A stretch of DNA of 64,000 nt from an uncultured Gammaproteobacteria bacterium. Its GTDB lineage: Bacteria; Pseudomonadota; Gammaproteobacteria; JAKDMP01. Under the pieces are notes generated by a model. That model made no database searches and was not told where the DNA came from. It saw only the letters and a list, made by a program, of their open reading frames with translations. The stretch lies in the NCBI GenBank assembly GCA_964586925.1, contig CAZPJI010000009.1:3683-67682 (forward strand), given 5' to 3'. Made by a program: the position numbers and the translations under genes. Shown here piece after piece: positions 28,438 to 54,469 of this stretch (within the stretch, counting starts at the first letter, position 1; every line of letters begins with the position of its first letter).

Positions 28438-30168
28438 ATGAAAAAGAAATTTGCATTGATCGCAGTATGCAGCTTGGTTTTCACCCTCGCGGGCTGCGGT
28501 GGCAACAGTTCCTCGCTGGGTAGCGGCGGTAGCAGTAGCGGCGGTACCGGGACCGGTGGTGGCGGTTCGTCCGGTGGTCCCGTCGAATTCGGCAGCGGCA
28601 GCGGCTCCAGTTTTGTCCAGGGCGTACTGGGCGTGTCTGTGCCCAGTCTTTCGGCCGGCGGTTCGACCACGATTTCCGCTTCGTTACAGAACTCCGATGG
28701 TACTCCTTACACCACTTCGGCGACGGTGACGTTCACTTCACCGTGCTACCAGAACGGGTTGGCCACTTTTTCCAGTAACGGCACGACTACGAACAGCGTC
28801 AGCACGAGTACTGGCCAGGCCAATATTACCTACACAGCCCAGGGTTGTAGTGGCAGCGATACCATCACAGCCACGACCTCGGCGGGGGGGATTAATTTGA
28901 CCGCCGTGGGGACGGTGACCGTAGCCGGCGCGTCAGCCGGCTCGATCCAATTCGTGTCCGCAAACCCGGCCACCATTTCCCTCCAAGGTGGTGGCGGGCA
29001 GACCACCTCAACGGTCATTTTCAAGGTCTCGGATGCCTCGGGTAGCCCTGTGCCCAACGTTAAGGTCCAGTTTTCCCCGAATACCACGGTAGGAGGCATC
29101 GTACTGACCCCCACGAGTGCCACGACAAACAATTCCGGCCAGGTGCAGACCGTGCTCCAGGCCGGCACCCAGCACACAACGGTACGTATAACCGCCCAGA
29201 CTACGAATCAGGCGGGCACTACGATTTCCACCCAGTCGCCCGGCATCGACATCAGTACGGGGATTCCCACCGAGAAGAATTTCTCGCTCTCCATCAGCAA
29301 GCACAATGTCGAGGGCTTCGACTATGATGGCGTGACCGACACCGTGACGGTACTCCTGGCGGACCGTTTCAATAACCCGGTTCCTGACGGCACTGCGGTG
29401 TCGTTCACGACCAATGGCGGACATATTGATCCCTCCTGCACGACAACGAACGGCACTTGTTCGGTGACCTGGACCAGTGCTAATCCCAGGCCTTCGGGCT
29501 CCGGCCTCTCCGTGCTGGGGCACGCGGAAATCCTGGCTTACACTACGGGCGAAGAGAGTTTCACGGATGCCAACGGTGATGGCGTATTCGACGATAACGA
29601 CCAATTCAGTCTCTATACCGGATCGGGCGACAACTTCTTTGGTCCGCCTGCGCAGGACGACATCGGCGAAGTTTACCTGGACCAGGATGAGTCCGGGTCA
29701 TATAAGACCGGCGACTATTTCTTCGACTTTAATCAGGACGGTGTCAGGAATGGGCCGGACGGTAAATACCATGGCCAAGGATGCGTGGGCACGGCCACGG
29801 TTCAATGCGGCACATCCACCCTGGGTATTGGCGAACAGAGCTGCATCGTGATGTCCGGATCGAATCTGTTCATATCCGGTCCGACCAGCTTGAGCGTTGG
29901 CCAGACGGCCACCTATACGATCACGGACGAGAATGGCAATGTCCCTGCCGTCGGTACGGGGCTGGGGATAAATTCCAGTGGTCCCTCGGTAACCATTCTT
30001 CAGACGTCAGTACCGGATATCGGTTGCGGCAGCTCTCCGCCAGGCTCCGGAGTTTACTCCTTCCAAGTTTCAGTGTCTTCTACGTCAGCTACGGGCAGCT
30101 TCCTAATCAAAGCGACGGACCCCGTCTCGGGAACGGTAAGCTACAGCCTACCGATTCAGGTCAACTAA
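28438..30168 (+). CDS. Large surface lipoprotein with tandem bacterial Ig-like (Big/invasin-like) domains
   Basis: Lipoprotein signal MKKKFALIAVCSLVFTLAGC followed by a G/S-rich linker. Repeated ~90-aa beta-rich modules (TxTAxxxxG..ITAxT motifs) resemble Big_1-type domains. It is inserted between pilQ and aroK. Confidence 0.7.
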   Translation: MKKKFALIAVCSLVFTLAGCGGNSSSLGSGGSSSGGTGTGGGGSSGGPVEFGSGSGSSFVQGVLGVSVPSLSAGGSTTISASLQNSDGTPYTTSATVTFTSPCYQNGLATFSSNGTTTNSVSTSTGQANITYTAQGCSGSDTITATTSAGGINLTAVGTVTVAGASAGSIQFVSANPATISLQGGGGQTTSTVIFKVSDASGSPVPNVKVQFSPNTTVGGIVLTPTSATTNNSGQVQTVLQAGTQHTTVRITAQTTNQAGTTISTQSPGIDISTGIPTEKNFSLSISKHNVEGFDYDGVTDTVTVLLADRFNNPVPDGTAVSFTTNGGHIDPSCTTTNGTCSVTWTSANPRPSGSGLSVLGHAEILAYTTGEESFTDANGDGVFDDNDQFSLYTGSGDNFFGPPAQDDIGEVYLDQDESGSYKTGDYFFDFNQDGVRNGPDGKYHGQGCVGTATVQCGTSTLGIGEQSCIVMSGSNLFISGPTSLSVGQTATYTITDENGNVPAVGTGLGINSSGPSVTILQTSVPDIGCGSSPPGSGVYSFQVSVSSTSATGSFLIKATDPVSGTVSYSLPIQVN

Positions 30169-33887: not shown

Positions 33888-34166
33888 CTACTTGCGTTCA
33901 GTTCGGTTTATTTCTGACTTAAGGCGGGTGGCAATACGCTTTCTTGCAACTTCGTCAAGCCGGGTTTCTGCGGTTGCTGATTCCAGGACCTTGCGAAAAT
34001 GACCGGATTTCATCCACCGGCGCAGGAGGGCGAGCTGCTTCTTGTATTGCTGACAACCGTCACACATGTGCAGGTGAAGTCGCAGCATAAGCCGGCTATG
34101 CCAACTGATCGGGTGATCCATTTGATCGGATAGGGTGCGGGCCGCTTCGGCGCAGGTCATCATCAC
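33888..34166 (-). CDS. Zinc-finger (zf-HC2/ZAS-type) anti-sigma factor, soluble
   Basis: 92 aa with HLHMCDGCQQY (H-x3-C-x2-C). A 4-nt overlap couples it to the upstream ECF sigma gene. Confidence 0.7.
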   Translation of the reverse strand: MMMTCAEAARTLSDQMDHPISWHSRLMLRLHLHMCDGCQQYKKQLALLRRWMKSGHFRKVLESATAETRLDEVARKRIATRLKSEINRTERK

Positions 34167-34813
34167 GCTTCATTTCCTGTCGATGGTTGGGAGAACCATG
34201 AGCGTTGTATGCAGTCACGCAGTCCGAGACGTGCGCGATGCAGTCTGACCCACAGATTGGATTTGGAAATACCTATGGAATCACAGACCTCATCGCTGTC
34301 CACGTCGTCGATCTCGATCAATCTGATGGCGACCGAAAGCGTTTTTGGAAGACCGTTGATACAGCGCTCGATCATATTCCAGAACTGGTCGTGCTCTACC
34401 ATGCTGTCAGGGTCTTGCCAAATACCCGGCGGCTTCCGCCAGGCACCTGAGCTGTCGAAGTTGCGTTCCAGAAGCGTATCGTTTCCGGGTTCGATTTCGA
34501 TCTGGATTTCGCGTGTGTTATGTCGGAATTGATCGAGTATCTTGTGCTTGAGGATTCCGAACAACCAGGTCTTTTCACTGGATTTGCCTTGATATTTGCT
34601 ACAGGCGTTAAGGGCTGCAAGTAAACATTCCTGTACGGCATCCTCGGCTTGGGTGCGATGGCGCAATCGTGCATACGCATAGCGAAACATTTCATCCCCG
34701 TATCTGTCCAGCCAGCTTTCTGGATCCAGTTCGTTTTCCCGGGAGGCTTTCTCTGGTGAGTCTTTCACAATAGGATCTCCATCTGGAGGAGGAAGGTTGC
34801 CATCGGCATTCAT
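34163..34813 (-). CDS. ECF (sigma-70 family group 4) RNA polymerase sigma factor
   Basis: Region 2 (FRYAYARLRHRTQAEDAVQECLLAALN) and region 4 HTH (SDEVCDSIGISKSNLWVRLHRARLGLRDC). Confidence 0.85.
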   Translation of the reverse strand: MNADGNLPPPDGDPIVKDSPEKASRENELDPESWLDRYGDEMFRYAYARLRHRTQAEDAVQECLLAALNACSKYQGKSSEKTWLFGILKHKILDQFRHNTREIQIEIEPGNDTLLERNFDSSGAWRKPPGIWQDPDSMVEHDQFWNMIERCINGLPKTLSVAIRLIEIDDVDSDEVCDSIGISKSNLWVRLHRARLGLRDCIQRSWFSQPSTGNEA

Positions 34814-35028
34814 GCGGTTTCTTCAGTGCAACGTCTTGCAATGCATTCCGAATGCGTTTCGATAGCCGAAACCATCTTCCTGACCAGTGCGGGGCGAGAG
34901 AATGACGGGTCGTCCATGTAGTTATTCACACTTGCGGCTGAGAATATTAATACCATAAAAACAATGGCGATCACACCTCCTGCAAACAGGAGATACTCCG
35001 CCACTTGTTTGGAATGTCCTCTGAACAT
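34810..35028 (-). CDS. Small single-pass membrane protein (72 aa) translationally coupled upstream of the ECF sigma gene
   Basis: The hydrophobic core LLFAGGVIAIVFMVLIF, then a Cys/His-containing tail (HSECIARRC). An ATGA overlap couples it to the sigma gene. Confidence 0.45.
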   Translation of the reverse strand: MFRGHSKQVAEYLLFAGGVIAIVFMVLIFSAASVNNYMDDPSFSRPALVRKMVSAIETHSECIARRCTEETA

Positions 35029-35111
35029 GTTCCTCTCCTTGAGTTCTGCATTGGATCATCCCTGCCAAGCTTCCGTTGCTCTCCGTTGTGCAAAGCAATG
35101 GAAAGGGGTGA

Positions 35112-36077
35112 TCATCGAGATATTGCCACCTTCGATGCGCTCAAAATGGGGTTTGATCGAGACCGTTTACCTGTGCCGGTAAGCGTCACGTAACCGGCAC
35201 CGAGAATCGCTCCGTACACGAGGCTGAGCACCAGTAAAAGTGCGACGCCTACCCATCCGAAACGCCATGCGAAGAGACCGGCGTGTCCGAGAGGCGCAAC
35301 TGTCAACATAGCGAGCAACCAGGCGCCGAAACCGAATAAGGCACCACGTACGGCTGAGTGGCCCGGGAGGTGCGGATAGAGCCAGGCGAAGGCCAGCCCC
35401 CCGATGACGATTGCCGCAATGAGGAATATCATCCATCCGCCGATAACACCTGTATGGGTGGCTTTGCCGATCAGCATCGCTGGGTCGAGCCCCGGCAATA
35501 CACCGTTTAGTGTCTTGAGCAGCAGGATGGCGCTGAGTGCGGCAGTCGCCATGAATGCGGCGCCTCCGCCGCCCAACCAGCGGTTGAGGTCTGCGTATGC
35601 GAGCGTTGAGTCGGCGGGTTTGAAGCCACTCGGGAAAAGCCGTGTGAGCAAGTGATCCAGAGAGAGCCGGCCCGGGCCGTAAAAGGTCAGTGCCAATAGC
35701 ATGAGTCCCCAGGCTTGGTGGTCCGGGAAACCCGTTGACCAGATGTCGGGGTAAGATGCGACGGCAATGATGTTGTAGACGAACAGGAAACCGGAAACGT
35801 ATCGCCCCATCAGACCGAAAGCCAGAAGCGCCGGAAACACGAGTTCTGCGAAAGTGCCGGTATAAGCGGCGACGGCAGGGCTGAGCAGGGGAGTGTGGTA
35901 GACGTATTTAAACAGCGCAATAGTGCCGGGCATGTCCGCAATTTTGGTCAACCCGGAACGGAAAAAGGCTTCGGCGATCCATAGTCTCATGAGAAGCATG
36001 GCAAGGGGTGTCGAATAGGCGAGCCAAGCGTTCACCCGTTGGGATAATCCCAGTCCGCTTCGTACGATGTTCTTCAT
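35112..36077 (-). CDS. DoxX-family integral membrane protein (bufferin-operon BufD-like)
   Basis: Multiple TM helices. DoxX-like N-terminus (LAMLLMRLWIAEAFFRSGLTKI). The ATG at 36077 with a GGAGA RBS is preferred over 36140. Confidence 0.75.
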   Translation of the reverse strand: MKNIVRSGLGLSQRVNAWLAYSTPLAMLLMRLWIAEAFFRSGLTKIADMPGTIALFKYVYHTPLLSPAVAAYTGTFAELVFPALLAFGLMGRYVSGFLFVYNIIAVASYPDIWSTGFPDHQAWGLMLLALTFYGPGRLSLDHLLTRLFPSGFKPADSTLAYADLNRWLGGGGAAFMATAALSAILLLKTLNGVLPGLDPAMLIGKATHTGVIGGWMIFLIAAIVIGGLAFAWLYPHLPGHSAVRGALFGFGAWLLAMLTVAPLGHAGLFAWRFGWVGVALLLVLSLVYGAILGAGYVTLTGTGKRSRSNPILSASKVAISR

Positions 36078-36862
36078 CTTGATTCTCCGAGTGTCGATGT
36101 GGCGGCGAAGATGCCAGCCGTATGGTGGCGTTGTAAGCACGCCTCAAGGTCGAACGAATCGCTCGATTCTTCGGCGCATGCCAGTGCCGCAGTCAAGCAC
36201 GCCCCGTTCGCGCAGGCGTCGAGAAACACATACTCTCCGGCATCCAGTGCCAGTACCAGAACGTCGTCATGAGGTCGTACGATCAAAACGCGCTCGCTAC
36301 CAGCGTTCAGCGCAGGTGGTTCGCCGGGCTCGTCCTCGAGGCAGTAACGCCACAGCGTCAGGACCGGGTATTGAGACGCCACAAGCCGGACGCTCGGATG
36401 GATCGGCAGCCGTTCGTTGCCGGGGAGAATCGAGGCCGGGTCGAATGGATTGGCGTCGGCCGCGAGCAGCGCTTCCTGTCGTGCCCATTCGAGCCGGGCG
36501 ATGTCGGCCAGATAGGGGATATTTGCCGCCTCGGGAAGGTGAGCCAGAAAATCGGCGAAGCCGGCACCGTATCGATTGAGATCTCCGTACGAGGAAGGAT
36601 GTGCGCCTACGAAACGTTGGGTGGCGCCTTCGAAAAAGTCGTCGCCCACGAGTCGCGCCACGGCGGGGAAGCTCGTAAGCAGGGCATCGGTGAAATTGAG
36701 CAGGTAACTGTTGCGGTACACGGCCATGCGTGCTGCTGGCGTCAGTCCGGCGCCGTGCACCCATTGCAGCACGCGGCTATCTTCGCCGCGAACGTGGCGG
36801 ACAAATTCCTGCTGGGTTTCAAGCAGCGCAGGCACGTGTTCTCTCCAAAATCGACTCGGCAT
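36074..36862 (-). CDS. DUF2063 domain protein (MNIO partner, BufC/MbnC-like)
   Basis: N-terminal DUF2063 signature (LTPAARMAVYRNSYLLNFTDALLTSFPAVARLVGDDFFEGATQRFVGAHPSSYGDLNRYG). It overlaps the 3' end of the DUF692 gene. Confidence 0.8.
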   Translation of the reverse strand: MPSRFWREHVPALLETQQEFVRHVRGEDSRVLQWVHGAGLTPAARMAVYRNSYLLNFTDALLTSFPAVARLVGDDFFEGATQRFVGAHPSSYGDLNRYGAGFADFLAHLPEAANIPYLADIARLEWARQEALLAADANPFDPASILPGNERLPIHPSVRLVASQYPVLTLWRYCLEDEPGEPPALNAGSERVLIVRPHDDVLVLALDAGEYVFLDACANGACLTAALACAEESSDSFDLEACLQRHHTAGIFAATSTLGESR

Positions 36863-37697
36863 GATTTGCTTCGTCCAACAGGGTCTCCAGCGGCGGGATG
36901 TCGCGGTCCCACTCGATCAGGGTCGGTCGCGGTCCCAGGCGCCCGATGGCATGGGTATAAAGATCCCAGACCGGCGTCGCGACGCGCCTGCTGTGCGTGT
37001 CGATGAGTAGGGTCACGCCTTGCACATCTTTGCGAATGTGTCCGGCAAGATGAATTTCCTCGATCGCTTTGACCGGCATCGCGTTCAGATAGTGGTATGC
37101 GTCGAAAGCGTGGTTGACCGCGTTCACGTAGATATTGTTGATGTCGAGCAGAATGCCGCAGCCGCTGCGCTGAGCGAGTTCTGCCAGAAATTCCCATTCC
37201 GGGATGATTGAGTCTGTGAATTCAAGGTAGCTGGATACGTTCTCGATCAGGATTCGCCGGCCGAGAAATTCCTGCGTCTGCTCGACGCGTTCAACGATGT
37301 GGGTAAGCGCCTCCGCCGTATAGGGCAGGGGCAGGAGGTCGTTAAGGTGTACGCCTCCGGCAGCACCCCAGCATAGATGCTCGGAAACCAGGCCGGGAGA
37401 AAACCGATCGACCAGGGACTTTAATTGTGCAAGATGCATGTCGTCGAGCGGGTCCGTCGAGCCCAGTCCCAGGCCTACCCCATGCAGGCTCAGCGGGTAC
37501 TCGCAACGCACTTTTTCCAACAGTCGCAATGTCGGACCACCGGCGGCAAAAAAGTTTTCGCTATGGACTTCAATGAAACCAACTGCCGGTCGACGCTCAA
37601 GTAGTTGGGAGTGATGCGGCGGCCTGAGGCCGATCCCGGCGTGTGCCGGGATCGACTCCAGTGCCGGACACGAATGCTGTCGCGCCGGGGATGACAT
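36819..37697 (-). CDS. DUF692 / MNIO (multinuclear non-heme iron-dependent oxidase, MbnB/BufB-like; TIM-barrel)
   Basis: GIGLRPPHHSQL...VGFIEVHSENFFAAGG...YPLSLHGVGLGLGS...VSEHLCW...DLLPLPYT...RRILIENVSSYLEF matches the HI1600/MbnB family consensus. Confidence 0.85.
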   Translation of the reverse strand: MSSPARQHSCPALESIPAHAGIGLRPPHHSQLLERRPAVGFIEVHSENFFAAGGPTLRLLEKVRCEYPLSLHGVGLGLGSTDPLDDMHLAQLKSLVDRFSPGLVSEHLCWGAAGGVHLNDLLPLPYTAEALTHIVERVEQTQEFLGRRILIENVSSYLEFTDSIIPEWEFLAELAQRSGCGILLDINNIYVNAVNHAFDAYHYLNAMPVKAIEEIHLAGHIRKDVQGVTLLIDTHSRRVATPVWDLYTHAIGRLGPRPTLIEWDRDIPPLETLLDEANHAESILERTRACAA

Positions 37698-38008
37698 CAG
37701 CCGGCGTTACCGGGTGTGGTGCTGCCGCCCGCGATCTTATGACATAGCCCCGCCGGAACGAGCAGAAATGCGCTCGGATCGCGGGCCTTTTTATCCTGTC
37801 CGGCGCAGGAGTGCCCCGGCGATTGGCAATCGTTCTTGAAGGCCGCGTTGATGCCGTAGCATTTTTCCATGCTGGTGCTGGTGGGCATTGTTTTCATCGC
37901 GTGTGCCTGGCTCATGTTGCCGGCAAAAGCGCCTTGAGTGCCCGCAAGAGTGCTTGCCGCGACGAGGCTGGCAAGGGCCGATTTGATGACGAGTGAACGT
38001 TTATCCAT
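37697..38008 (-). CDS. DUF2282-type Cys-rich secreted precursor peptide (bufferin BufA-like)
   Basis: 104 aa. Sec signal peptide (MDKRSLVIKSALASLVAASTLAGTQGAFA), then a core with four Cys in the conserved pattern EKCYG-x8-NDC-x5-HSCAG-x17-GLC. RBS GGAGA ahead of the ATG at 38008. An ATGA overlap couples it to the MNIO gene. Confidence 0.75.
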   Translation of the reverse strand: MDKRSLVIKSALASLVAASTLAGTQGAFAGNMSQAHAMKTMPTSTSMEKCYGINAAFKNDCQSPGHSCAGQDKKARDPSAFLLVPAGLCHKIAGGSTTPGNAG

Positions 38009-38079
38009 GAAAATATCTCCAATAAATACAAGTACATAAAAGTCACAACCCGCTTTGTTATTGGGATGCAACTGCGAGT

Positions 38080-38107
38080 TAGTCGGGTGAAAGATAGATT
38101 CCTTACA
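38080..38107 (-). promoter_or_regulatory. Candidate ECF-type promoter (GTAAGG-N15/16-CGAC) about 70 nt upstream of the precursor gene
   Basis: The reverse complement reads tGTAAGGaatctatctttcaccCGACtaac. It resembles the GTAACC-N16-CGAA class of ECF promoters. This is inference only. Confidence 0.3.
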
Positions 38108-38481
38108 AAAATTCCACTGCATGGCAGATTTAGAGGAACAACAGGGGATGCTCACCCCTCGCCCTTTTCATAAGAGACTGTTTTCTCCGCCGGATGGCAT
38201 AAGGACTATTTAGCCCGGTGGGGCTGAGGGCTACCTGGACCGTTCCCGGCTTTCAGGCACGGCCAAGTGAACGATAGTCTTGGGGGCGCGGGGGGATGAA
38301 TAAGTTGGCCGTGGGCTTTGCGACAGTAACCCGAGAAGAGTCGTTCGCTGATCCGCCAGGACGGATCTCGAGGGTTATGGAGTACCAGTCAAGTGTTTTC
38401 TTTTGCGCCTTCGCGAGCTGCATTCCTTGCCGGCCTATCACCGGGTCGTCAGCGTCGAGGGCCGGGTCGCTGCCTTCCTGC

Positions 38482-51127: not shown

Positions 51128-54100
51128 TCAGTCGTTACCACCGCAGGTGGTCTTGGCCGGGCACGGTGGATAGTTCGGCTGCGGCGGGTAGGCCGGTAGC
51201 CAGGACGGCTGCGCCGGCAGTTTCACCGGATGCGCCTCGATCTTCTGCATCAGGACGTCCACGGCCGTCTGCAACTGCGGGTCTTTGCCCGACATCACGG
51301 CTCCTGGTGTGTTGTCGACCTTGATGTTCGGCTCCACCCCCACGTTTTCGACGATCCAGGCAGACTTGGTGTCGTACATCGATTCCTCGGGAATCGTGAT
51401 GTAGCCGCCGTCCATCAGCGGCCAGTAGCCGCGGATGCCGCGTACGCCACCCCAGGTGCGTTCGCCGATCGCCGGGCCGAGGCCCATCTGCTTGAACTTC
51501 CAGGGGAAGATGTCCCCGTCGGAAGCCGAGTAGTGGTTGATCAGAACGGCCTTGTAGCCGAGGGCGATCGCGTTCTGTGGCGCCGGACCGTCCTGGCGGC
51601 CGGCGAACAGCGACACCAGTTTGCGCTTCAGTCGTTCGAGCACGATGGGGTCGATGAACCCGCCGCCATTGTAGCGGTCATCGATGATCAGGCCCTGTTT
51701 CATCAGCTGCGGGTAGAACTGACGCATGAACTGGTCCATACCGAGCTCTTCCATGTCGCTGAGATAGATATAGCCGATCTTGCCCCCGGAAAGCCGGTTC
51801 ACTTCCTCGCGGTTGTGCTTGATCCAGGCATGCAGCCACAAGGGCAGGGCGTTTTTGATCGGCTTGACCCGGATCGTCCACGCGTTGCGGCCTGCGGCGT
51901 TATCCGCAAGCTTGAGCGTCACGGTGGTGCCGAGCGTATTGACCAGGAAGCGATACGGGTTTTCCGGTGCCCTCAGCTCCTGACCGTTGATGGCGAGTAC
52001 GTAATCGCCTTCGGCAACCTTCATGCCCGGTTGATCCAGCGGGGCGGTGTAGCCGTCAAGGGTATTGTCACCCTTGTAGATGCGGGAGAAGTAATACCGG
52101 CCCGATTTGGCGTCGAGCGCGAAGTTGGCGCCGAGCATGCCGGTGCCGATGTACTTCGGTGCGTCCGGAGTGTCGCCGCCACCCACGTAGGTATGACTGT
52201 TCTGCAGCGAACCGATCATCTCGCCGATCAGGTAGTTGAGATCCTGGCGGCAGGTGACCAGCGGCAGCAGCGCGGCGTAGCGCTTGCCGATCGCGTTCCA
52301 GTCCTTGCCGTTCATCTTGGGGTTGACGAAGAAGTTGTGCTCCAGGCGCCAGGCGTTCCAGTACATCTCCTTCCACTCCGCCACCGGATCGACCCGCATC
52401 TGCATGTGTGACAGGTCCAGCTTGTCGCCGCTGCCGTCGCTCATATCGGCGGAACGGATATACCAGTCGTTTCCGGTCTGGTAAAGGAGGGACTTGCCGT
52501 TGGCGGAGAGGGCAAAGTCGCTCACCCCGGCCACCAGTTGCTTGCCTTTGCGCTTGTCCATGTCATAGGCCATGAGCGCGGGCGTTTCGCCGGGCAGCGT
52601 GTTGCCGAGGATCGGATTGGGGTAAGTGGTGTAGAAGACGACGCCGTTGGATTCGGCCACGTTGCCGATGTTGGCCGTCGGCACCGGCAGGGGCACGGCG
52701 CGCTGGGCGAGGCCGTCGAAGTCGATCTTCACGCGGACGGGGCCCTTGCTTTTCGCGCTTTTGCCGGTCTTCCCGTTTTCCGTGGCGCTTGCCTGACGCG
52801 GGGCGAATGGCGACGGGGTCCCGGCCTCGAGGGTGGTCACGTAGAGGCCGTCCGGTTTCATGTTGGCCACGTTGAATTCGTTGCTCGAGAAGGCCGGGTT
52901 CTGGTGCCGCGCGGAGACAAAGTAGAGGTATTTGCCATTGCTGGAGAACACCGGATTGGAATTGTCGAACCACGAGTTCGTGACCTGGTGCACGGAATGC
53001 GAACTCACCCCGTAGATGAACAGGGCACGCATGCCGTTGGGCTGGGACTCGGAATAAGCGAGCCAGCCGGAGTCGGGCGAGAAGGAGAAGTCCTTCATCT
53101 CGCGCCACTTGTCATGTGCGACCTTGAACATCTTGCGCGAGGCCACATTGAGCAGCCACAGCGTCTTGGAACTGTCGGAGAAGGCCATCCATTTGCCGTT
53201 CGGGGACCAGGTGGGGCCGTAGTAGGAGCTGTCGTCGGTCGAGGTCAGCAGGGTTTCCTTGCCGCCGGTCGCCGGGCGCATCGCAATTTCGCTTGCGCCG
53301 CTGGCATCGGTGACGTAGGCGACCGTCTTGCCATCCGGACTCCACGACGGGTACTGTTCGCGGGCGCCGGTGGTCTGTGTGATGTCGGTGGTATCCCCAT
53401 GCTTTGCCGGAACCGTGAAGATGTCCCCGCGGGCGCCGAAGACCGCCAGCTTGCCGTTCGGGGCAATGTCGGCCGAGCGGATCATCTGACTGGCGTCATA
53501 CCAGTACGGCCGGGTGCGGATGCCGTCATTGGGTACGGTCACCGGCACCTCGACGAGCTGCTCGGAAGGCAGCTTCAAGACGTAAAGCTTTCCCTGGTCG
53601 GCGAAGGTGATACCTGTGTTGCCGAGGCTGGGCCAGTCAACGTCGTAATTCTTGAAGTGCGTGACCTGGCGGAACTGCTGTGTCTTCAGCGAGTAGGCCC
53701 ACAGATTCATGGTGTGGTTAGGCCCCTCGTCAGATGCATAGTAAATCGTGTCGCCGAACCACATCGGGTCGATGTCGCTGCCTTTCCAGTGCGTGATGCG
53801 GTCTACTTTCTTGGTCTTGAAATCGTAGGTCCAGACGTCCTGCGCCAGGCCACCGTAGTAGTGCTTCCAGGTACGGAAATTGCGGAAGATGCGGTTATAG
53901 GCGATCTTCGTGCCATCGGCGTTAAAGCTAAGCATTCCCCCCTTGGGCAACGGCATTGCGATCGGCAGACCACCGTCCACGGGGACTTCGAACAGGCGCC
54001 CGAACCACGAGTTGTAGGTATCGCGACGGCTGAGGAATACGATGTCCTTGCTGTCCCGGGTCCAGGTCACGACCATGTTGTTGGGTCCCCAGCGCATGGG

Positions 54101-54469
54101 GGCATGGGGCGTGACGTCGGAATCGTAAGTCAGGCGTTTGACTTGGCCGCCATCGGCTGGCATGACGTAAACATCGGTCTGGCCAGCATACTCGCCCGTG
54201 AAGGCGATCCACTTGCCGTTTGGTGAAAAGCGCGGCATTTGGTCGTAGCCGGGATCGGCGGTCAGGCGGTGGGCCTCGCCGCCGGTCATACCGACTTTCC
54301 ACAAGTTGCCACCGGCTTCGAAAACGATGCTGTTGCCATGCAGGGTGGGGAATCGTACGAGAGCCTGCTGGCTTCCGGTCTGGGCCTGCGCGGCGGCAGG
54401 CAGCAGCAGTAAGGCAAGAAAACTTGCGCCTGCACTGAGCAGGGCGAGGCGGCGGGAACAAAACATCAT
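51128..54469 (-). CDS. Tricorn protease homolog (TolB-like beta-propellers + PDZ + S41 C-terminal peptidase), periplasmic
   Basis: 1113 aa. Signal peptide. The N-terminus has repeated WD40/TolB-like blades (SPDGKWIAF, SPDGKTVAY, SPNGKWMAF). The C-terminus has the S41 domain with catalytic Ser (GASDGDIFP). Confidence 0.75.
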   Translation of the reverse strand: MMFCSRRLALLSAGASFLALLLLPAAAQAQTGSQQALVRFPTLHGNSIVFEAGGNLWKVGMTGGEAHRLTADPGYDQMPRFSPNGKWIAFTGEYAGQTDVYVMPADGGQVKRLTYDSDVTPHAPMRWGPNNMVVTWTRDSKDIVFLSRRDTYNSWFGRLFEVPVDGGLPIAMPLPKGGMLSFNADGTKIAYNRIFRNFRTWKHYYGGLAQDVWTYDFKTKKVDRITHWKGSDIDPMWFGDTIYYASDEGPNHTMNLWAYSLKTQQFRQVTHFKNYDVDWPSLGNTGITFADQGKLYVLKLPSEQLVEVPVTVPNDGIRTRPYWYDASQMIRSADIAPNGKLAVFGARGDIFTVPAKHGDTTDITQTTGAREQYPSWSPDGKTVAYVTDASGASEIAMRPATGGKETLLTSTDDSSYYGPTWSPNGKWMAFSDSSKTLWLLNVASRKMFKVAHDKWREMKDFSFSPDSGWLAYSESQPNGMRALFIYGVSSHSVHQVTNSWFDNSNPVFSSNGKYLYFVSARHQNPAFSSNEFNVANMKPDGLYVTTLEAGTPSPFAPRQASATENGKTGKSAKSKGPVRVKIDFDGLAQRAVPLPVPTANIGNVAESNGVVFYTTYPNPILGNTLPGETPALMAYDMDKRKGKQLVAGVSDFALSANGKSLLYQTGNDWYIRSADMSDGSGDKLDLSHMQMRVDPVAEWKEMYWNAWRLEHNFFVNPKMNGKDWNAIGKRYAALLPLVTCRQDLNYLIGEMIGSLQNSHTYVGGGDTPDAPKYIGTGMLGANFALDAKSGRYYFSRIYKGDNTLDGYTAPLDQPGMKVAEGDYVLAINGQELRAPENPYRFLVNTLGTTVTLKLADNAAGRNAWTIRVKPIKNALPLWLHAWIKHNREEVNRLSGGKIGYIYLSDMEELGMDQFMRQFYPQLMKQGLIIDDRYNGGGFIDPIVLERLKRKLVSLFAGRQDGPAPQNAIALGYKAVLINHYSASDGDIFPWKFKQMGLGPAIGERTWGGVRGIRGYWPLMDGGYITIPEESMYDTKSAWIVENVGVEPNIKVDNTPGAVMSGKDPQLQTAVDVLMQKIEAHPVKLPAQPSWLPAYPPQPNYPPCPAKTTCGGND

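Follow-up and report, generated by a model that had tools for sequence, protein, structure and literature searches.

Which system is encoded by the seven co-directional open reading frames (ORFs) between hemE and fadD on contig CAZPJI010000009.1 of an uncultured Gammaproteobacteria bacterium, and what signal switches it on? The window analyzed here is a 64-kb stretch of that contig; all coordinates refer to it, and the locus lies on its minus strand. Known here from sequence alone, the locus is, with high confidence, a cluster for a peptide made by the ribosome and modified after translation (RiPP) of the bufferin-1 (BufA1/DUF2282) type, bufA-bufB-bufC-bufD, extended by an extracytoplasmic function (ECF) sigma factor and a zinc-associated anti-sigma factor (ZAS) of the Neisseria sigmaE/MseR type. 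Its features, in the direction of transcription, are as follows.

38078..38106, minus strand: predicted promoter of the sigmaE (ECF) type, from a consensus match and cross-locus enrichment
37697..38008, minus strand: bufA, 103-aa bufferin-1 precursor, from Pfam DUF2282
36819..37697, minus strand: bufB, 292-aa multinuclear non-haem iron oxidase (MNIO, formerly DUF692), from the MNIO_BufB equivalog
36074..36862, minus strand: bufC, 262 aa (253 aa from GTG 36835), DUF2063 partner of the MNIO, from Pfam DUF2063
35112..36077, minus strand: bufD variant, 321-aa DoxX::DUF6789 fusion, from Pfam DoxX and DUF6789 in a single ORF
34810..35028, minus strand: orphan 72-aa ORF of uncertain coding status, from a Shine-Dalgarno sequence and a gene-finder call
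34163..34813, minus strand: ECF sigma factor, 216 aa (ATG 34813) or 201 aa (GTG 34768), from Sigma70_r2, Sigma70_r4_2 and TIGR02943
33888..34163, minus strand: soluble ZAS anti-sigma factor of the MseR type, 91 aa, from zf-HC2 and NF052368

The seven ORFs (33888-38008) were read directly from the sequence, each where the initial annotation had placed it, and an independent gene caller returned the same seven on a public contig of 100% identity (Logan SRR8557214). Three public copies of the locus were found, and each is 100% identical to the window.

The precursor and the enzyme expected to modify it carry the assignment. The initial annotation had proposed a bufferin-1 MNIO RiPP with DUF2063, DoxX and a sigma/anti-sigma pair, and had left the proposal to profile searches. 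These bore it out: BufA matches DUF2282 (PF10048) at 70.8 bits (cut-off 22.4) over model positions 1-52 of 53, and BufB passes the NCBIfam MNIO_BufB equivalog (NF050167) at 393.8 bits (cut-off 310). BufB also matches Pfam MbnB_TglH_ChrH at 364 bits and falls under the cut-off of each of the HvfB, ApyH, MbnB and ChrH equivalog models. Its nearest solved structure is 3bww (DUF692; E 1.3e-47), and its best relatives, at 62-63% identity, come from metagenome-assembled genomes (MAGs) of Gammaproteobacteria, Acidiferrobacterales and Chromatiales. BufC, a PME type 1 partner whose gene overlaps bufB, matches DUF2063 (PF09836) at 84.7 bits (cut-off 27.2). The locus thus combines DUF2282, four cysteines, a Sec signal, a BufB-type MNIO, a DUF2063 partner and DoxX, which define a bufferin-1 cluster, with ECF regions 2 and 4, a ZAS motif plus N-terminal cysteine and a promoter motif, which define the Neisseria-type sigmaE/MseR switch.

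By inspection, BufA begins with a Sec-type signal, MDKRSLVIKSALASLVAASTLAGTQGAFA followed by G, in which K3, R4 and K9 form the n-region, hydropathy reaches a maximum of 2.02 and an A-F-A cleavage motif precedes the G (residues 27-30). The core contains four cysteines, C50, C61, C68 and C89, which are kept in 65-67 of the 67 relatives taken from related loci; the EKCxG, NDC, HxCAG and GxC motifs are likewise conserved in that set. The cysteine spacing is 11/7/21, compared with 11/8/21 in Caulobacter Buf1 (PMC11626156), and the D-C and S-C-A flanks are those found at Caulobacter CysII and CysIII. In Caulobacter Buf1, CysII and CysIII are converted to 5-thiooxazoles and CysI and CysIV form a disulfide (PMC11626156); a recent preprint re-examines the 5-thiooxazole chemistry and supports it (bioRxiv 10.64898/2025.12.15.693703). 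Characterized bufferins of the DUF2282 class bind copper as Cu(I)/Cu(II) and give Caulobacter protection against it (PMC11626156). By homology with this system, we infer that the iron oxidase BufB and its DUF2063 partner BufC would turn the central cysteines of BufA, C61 and C68, into 5-thiooxazoles (-4 Da each) in the cytoplasm. BufA would then be exported via Sec and its signal peptide cleaved after AFA29, the outer cysteines C50 and C89 would form a disulfide, and the mature periplasmic protein of approximately 74 residues would bind copper and so buffer or chelate it.

The regulatory pair was assigned by domains and motif. The sigma factor matches Sigma70_r2 (53.7 bits) and Sigma70_r4_2 (33.8 bits), corresponding to regions 2 and 4, passes TIGR02943 (165.3 bits, cut-off 162.2) and is 38-44% identical to the ECF genes adjoining bufABC(D) in 25 related loci. 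The anti-sigma factor matches zf-HC2 (23.1 bits) and NF052368 'antisigmaE' (59.5 bits, cut-off 50). Its ZAS residues, read from the sequence as Cys4 and His30-x3-Cys34-x2-Cys37, have the same numbering as in Neisseria meningitidis MseR (NMB2145; PMC2893595), whose cysteines matter for anti-sigmaE activity in that organism (PMC2893595). No hydrophobic or transmembrane segment was found in the anti-sigma factor (hydropathy maximum 0.18), and none of the seven products matched NrsF (DUF1109) in Pfam or NCBIfam. The label 'ECF group 13', for a sigma factor paired with a small cytoplasmic ZAS, is taken from PMC7907618; membership was judged here by the domains and the ZAS motif.

The distribution of such pairs was assessed in a sample of 80 genomic loci encoding BufB relatives, of which 25 have a recognizable ECF and ZAS pair adjoining bufABC(D). 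Most Burkholderiales have the pair in divergent orientation, three loci (L002, L005 and L006) have it upstream and co-directional, and L031 shares the gene order found here. An ECF and ZAS pair next to bufferin genes is common, not novel. The view that a soluble ZAS anti-sigma sets this locus apart from characterized systems therefore had to be given up: the MseR/HrsE type is known, it recurs at those 25 loci, and the difference is from Caulobacter SigF/NrsF only. By homology, the anti-sigma factor would bind zinc and at rest would hold the sigma factor through a Zn/Cys centre of Cys4, His30, Cys34 and Cys37, and a stress signal, oxidative or thiol-reactive (possibly copper), would free it.

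The gene overlaps at the locus indicate a single transcription unit. bufA and bufB share a TGATG at 37697 (1-nt overlap), bufB and bufC overlap by 44 nt (17 nt if bufC begins at GTG 36835), bufC and doxX meet in an ATGA overlap (36077-36074), and the ECF and ZAS genes overlap by 1-4 nt. An 83-nt gap separates doxX from the 72-aa ORF, and that ORF overlaps the sigma gene through ATGA only if the sigma factor starts at ATG 34813. The start chosen by the gene caller, GTG 34768, follows a GGAG at 8 nt and would put 42 nt between the sigma gene and the 72-aa ORF. The genes had been described as mostly translationally coupled, which is right for six of them and ambiguous for the 72-aa ORF because of the choice of sigma start. 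No sigma-70-like promoter was found in the intergenic gaps of the operon, no Rfam family was matched in the 64-kb window, and the window holds no paralogs of the seven genes elsewhere.

The predicted promoter consists of a -35 element, GTAAGGAAT (38106-38098), a 12-nt spacer and a -10 element, CGACTAAC (38085-38078), approximately 70 nt before the bufA ATG. It agrees with the Neisseria sigmaE consensus, GTMAGBWTT-N12-13-CGTCTAAH (PMC2893595), at 8 of 9 positions in the -35 and 7 of 8 in the -10 element. A relaxed pattern has this single match in 64 kb on both strands and 0 in 100 shuffles, a uniqueness statistic that is partly circular, since the pattern was fitted after the site had been seen. 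The cross-locus comparison, which is independent of the window, is therefore the stronger evidence: GTAAG[AG]A-N12-16-GAC, a core derived by inspecting the upstream sequences of the loci and then re-tested, is found ahead of bufA in 21 of the 25 loci that have the ECF and ZAS pair, versus 2 of the 35 that lack it. A stricter pattern requiring CG[ACT]CNA was present at just 2 of those 25. L082, the closest relative, has the motif before bufA as well; its regulator genes do not lie nearby.

Since the motif is unique in the window and enriched in loci with the pair, the operon is very probably transcribed from this predicted sigmaE-type promoter by its own sigma factor in an autoregulatory loop. 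The sigma factor would direct RNA polymerase to GTAAGGAAT-N12-CGACTAAC before bufA, a motif detected in silico whose activity is presumed, and the circuit would be autoregulated in that the sigma and anti-sigma genes close the same transcription unit. For the equivalent Neisseria operon, co-transcription and autoregulation have been shown experimentally (PMC2893595).

Two observations on the motif come from other loci. In two betaproteobacterial MAGs, a second MNIO/DUF2063 pair follows a BufA2-like precursor (L039:10534-12579 and L045:10169-12237). The motif precedes this second, multi-Cys precursor in both, so that one ECF/ZAS pair probably controls two bufferin operons there. Separately, approximately 17 related loci have a second motif copy, GTAAGGAACTGGCCATCACGCCGACCAAC, in the 3' coding region of the ECF gene (region 4.2, ...CKELAITPTN), for example L053:5140, L059:5121, L060:5143, L071:5136, L075:5157 and L005:5223. 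This copy is found some 2-125 nt ahead of the first long ORF that contains the ZAS gene, the ORF starts being uncurated; the ECF gene of the window lacks it (34260-34300). GTAAGGAACTGGCCATCACGCCGACCAAC could be an internal sigma-dependent promoter for negative feedback via the anti-sigma factor, or codon conservation only. The codon before it always ends in GT, in high-GC genomes as well, which hints at selection on the DNA.

The fourth gene departs from the usual bufD. It had been annotated as a DoxX membrane protein; the N-terminal half is indeed DoxX (PF07681, 51.5 bits, cut-off 23.6; about 35757-35999), but a C-terminal membrane domain, DUF6789 (44.1 bits, cut-off 27.1; about 35172-35576), had been overlooked. 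The fusion is real: an independent protein with the same architecture, P0002, 63% identical, closes a further bufA-bufB-bufC operon, that of L082, which comes from an unrelated metagenome. Its rarity was gauged by an exhaustive HMMER scan of the DUF6789 half against 1.84 billion cluster representatives (E of 1e-3 or better), which returned 209 relatives, nearly all stand-alone proteins of 140-165 aa, with DoxX fused in one 50%-identity cluster only. The domain occurs in 0 of the 80 related bufferin loci, DoxX or buf neighbors were absent at ten metagenome loci of a stand-alone relative, and a word-indexed homology search with the domain alone gave no match. The AlphaFold model of the full-length fusion is poor (pLDDT 59).

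DUF6789 in its own right (window 35112-35630 and the 209 relatives) is a small uncharacterized membrane family of approximately 150 aa in which certain Trp, Gly and Pro residues are invariant (W66, G96, W104, P113 and G140 in the numbering of alignment A2). A confident AlphaFold model of the domain found no structural neighbor in the PDB. In Caulobacter, modification proceeds without DoxX (PMC11626156). The DoxX::DUF6789 protein would be an accessory membrane component.

The choice between copper and an oxidant as the signal supplies the main rival to the reading given above. Copper, which the initial annotation named along with other metal stress, is a possible signal for the sigma pair. The unit could instead serve mainly against oxidative or hypochlorite stress, in the manner of Neisseria sigmaE and Haemophilus RpoE2, and not in copper homeostasis; thiol heterocycles and DoxX would then protect envelope redox state, with copper binding incidental. 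We consider this a serious possibility, though the less probable one. The anti-sigma factor is a ZAS of the redox type and has the additional Cys4, which is essential in MseR (PMC2893595), HOCl/H2O2 induce RpoE2 in H. influenzae, where it governs msrAB and a DoxX/MNIO operon (PMC7907618), and DoxX homologs have been linked to oxidative and sulfur stress (PMC12452194). The copper binding and protection described above for DUF2282 bufferins speak for copper, however, as does the metal induction of the gig operons, and neither msrAB nor a further sigmaE-type promoter occurs in the 64-kb window. Several further points weigh against the main reading proposed here, besides the circular element in the promoter statistic. 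The homologous sigma factors are tied to HOCl/H2O2 and msrAB, not copper (PMC2893595, PMC7907618), and N. meningitidis yielded no inducer (PMC2893595). Neither an intrinsic terminator nor an unusually stable structure was found after the anti-sigma gene. BufC reaches 55.3 bits against NCBIfam RiPP_RRE_HvfC over residues 16-234, below the cut-off of 142, so that its putative C-terminal part resembling a RiPP recognition element (RRE) is backed by a sub-threshold match, and searches of BufC against the PDB, with a single sequence or a 16-sequence profile, did not reach 3DEE or TglI. That the pair is merely adjacent and regulates other genes, with the buf genes under a different regulator, is very improbable. 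The 83-nt gap before the 72-aa ORF could split two transcription units, but the sigmaE-type promoter lies before bufA and nowhere else in the window, the motif co-varies with the presence of the pair over 60 loci, and the Neisseria counterpart forms a single autoregulated operon (PMC2893595).

The 72-aa ORF poses a separate problem. The initial annotation had described it as an extra single-TM protein, and there is indeed a gene-finder call and one segment of strong hydrophobicity, its hydropathy peaking at 2.72 over 19 residues, followed by a C-terminus HSECIARRC; the ORF is an orphan with flat codon-position GC, however, and may not be a gene. It matches no Pfam or NCBIfam family, permissive Pfam hits being noise (E of 0.1 or worse), and a search of 5.8 billion clusters found only itself. 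Its GC content at codon positions 1, 2 and 3 is 0.49/0.44/0.49, the lowest of the locus, compared with 0.55-0.79 at third positions (GC3) in the neighboring genes. No positional equivalent exists in the four co-directional loci (L031, L002, L005 and L006), and it is missing from the closest relative, L082, whose operon stops at doxX::DUF6789. These observations fit an untranslated spacer, 34810-35111, from a foreign ECF/ZAS module inserted after the four-gene buf operon, possibly with a weak internal promoter for basal expression of sigma and anti-sigma; Neisseria has a basal rpoE-mseR transcript without induction of the full operon (PMC2893595). Against a spacer stand a strong AAGGAG Shine-Dalgarno sequence at ideal spacing, 6 nt before the ATG at 35028, the clean transmembrane segment, the possible ATGA overlap with the sigma gene and the failure to find a sigma-70-like promoter in the interval. 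The two sides balance: the spacer explanation is an even call, and whether the ORF is expressed as a protein stands at about even. A more ambitious proposal joins both unusual features of the locus. The fusion would be a Rosetta-stone link between DoxX and a second, uncharacterized four-helix membrane module, for example a quinone-linked redox device for the thiol/disulfide state of the bufferin, and the 72-aa protein, through its H-x2-C-x4-C tail, a lineage-specific sensor relaying a periplasmic signal to the ZAS anti-sigma factor. We regard this combination as unlikely.

Composition bears on the origin of the regulatory genes. GC3 is 0.69-0.79 in the flanking housekeeping genes, 0.65-0.68 in bufABC-doxX, 0.60 in the ZAS gene, 0.55 in the ECF gene and 0.49 in the 72-aa ORF. 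These steps, together with the absence of the last three ORFs from L082 and the variable position of the pair elsewhere, suggest that the sigma/anti-sigma module and the spacer ORF were added separately, and later, to a four-gene operon that already existed. The regulatory module can lie downstream, upstream, divergent or unlinked, and so moves independently of the biosynthetic genes.

Around the locus, the window consists of ordinary chromosomal genes, with pilOPQ, aroK, aroB, pyrF and hemE on one side and fadD, a 2-hydroxyacid dehydrogenase gene, a kefB-like gene and kup on the other. To call the position between hemE and fadD an accessory one, as had been done, is fair. No copper-resistance genes were present among the ten large flanking ORFs scanned. 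Two other genes in the window deserve mention. A 576-aa protein with Big_1 (invasin/intimin-like) repeats is encoded at 28438-30168 (plus strand) between pilQ and aroK, where the usual arrangement is pilMNOPQ-aroK-aroB. A 1113-aa tricorn-like protease with PD40 beta-propeller repeats, Tricorn C1, PDZ and Peptidase_S41 domains is encoded at 51128-54469 (minus strand) and is unrelated to the buf locus.

The locus is a complete but ordinary bufferin cluster with a known type of regulator, and its unusual features are the DoxX::DUF6789 fusion and the orphan ORF only, both so far minor oddities. Thousands of bufferin clusters exist, and neither their biosynthetic core nor this type of regulator is new. 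What the locus adds is an explicit tie between the DUF2282 (Buf1) class and a Neisseria-type sigmaE/MseR switch; a cross-phylum motif, tGTAAGGA-N12-14-CGAC, that could serve for regulon mapping in many Proteobacteria; and a very rare fusion that is one of the few clues to the role of DoxX in bufferin clusters.

Comparison with known systems places the locus among MNIO clusters. With methanobactin MbnABC it shares an MNIO-superfamily enzyme that would form a copper ligand by acting on cysteines in a peptide of ribosomal origin. The precursor here is a Sec-exported small protein, whereas methanobactin is a leader/core peptide secreted as a chalkophore. Membership in the methanobactin family was rejected: BufB scores 61.4 bits against the MbnB equivalog (TIGR04159; cut-off 325), and neither MbnA nor MbnC is present. 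The oxazolin/gonophorin/fontiphorin family (HvfABCX) was rejected as well, as BufA lacks the EGKCG repeat and the scores are below cut-off for HvfB (256 of 360 bits), HvfC (55 of 142) and HvfX (51 of 80). Haemophilus influenzae RpoE2/HrsE likewise combines a sigma factor and a small cytoplasmic ZAS with an MNIO/DUF2063/DoxX cluster (PMC7907618, PMC11252979). There, the regulator genes are unlinked from the MNIO (hvf, oxazolin) operon, whereas here they are linked; the H. influenzae precursor is of the EGKCG type, and the MNIO here is BufB, not HvfB.

For the biosynthetic genes, the closest likeness is to the founding bufferin-1 system, buf1 of Caulobacter vibrioides (bufA1B1C1D1, CCNA_03363-03366; PMC11626156). 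Both have a DUF2282 precursor with a Sec signal and four near-identically spaced cysteines, an MNIO, a DUF2063 protein and DoxX in the same gene order, and both are under ECF sigma control, which is predicted here. In Caulobacter, regulation is by SigF and NrsF, a polytopic membrane anti-sigma whose gene lies nearby, whereas the window has a cytoplasmic ZAS anti-sigma encoded at the 3' end of the operon, a BufD fused to DUF6789 and the extra orphan ORF. Caulobacter-type SigF/NrsF regulation was rejected for this locus, its anti-sigma being a soluble zf-HC2 protein with the NrsF family unmatched.

For regulation, the counterpart is the rpoE operon of N. meningitidis and N. gonorrhoeae (NMB2140-NMB2145, NGO1948-NGO1943), with the anti-sigma MseR (PMC2893595) and the product gonophorin (PMC13097082). 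The Neisseria precursor belongs to the EGKCG-repeat (oxazolin/gonophorin) class, whereas that of the window is a DUF2282 protein; the Neisseria DoxX is the first gene and unfused, whereas here it is fused; and the Neisseria regulon also takes in msrAB. The two loci nevertheless share one co-directional operon with DoxX, a precursor, an MNIO, a DUF2063 protein, an ECF sigma and a small soluble ZAS, the positions of Cys4, His30, Cys34 and Cys37, and a promoter of the GTAAGG...CGTC type, which is autoregulated in Neisseria.

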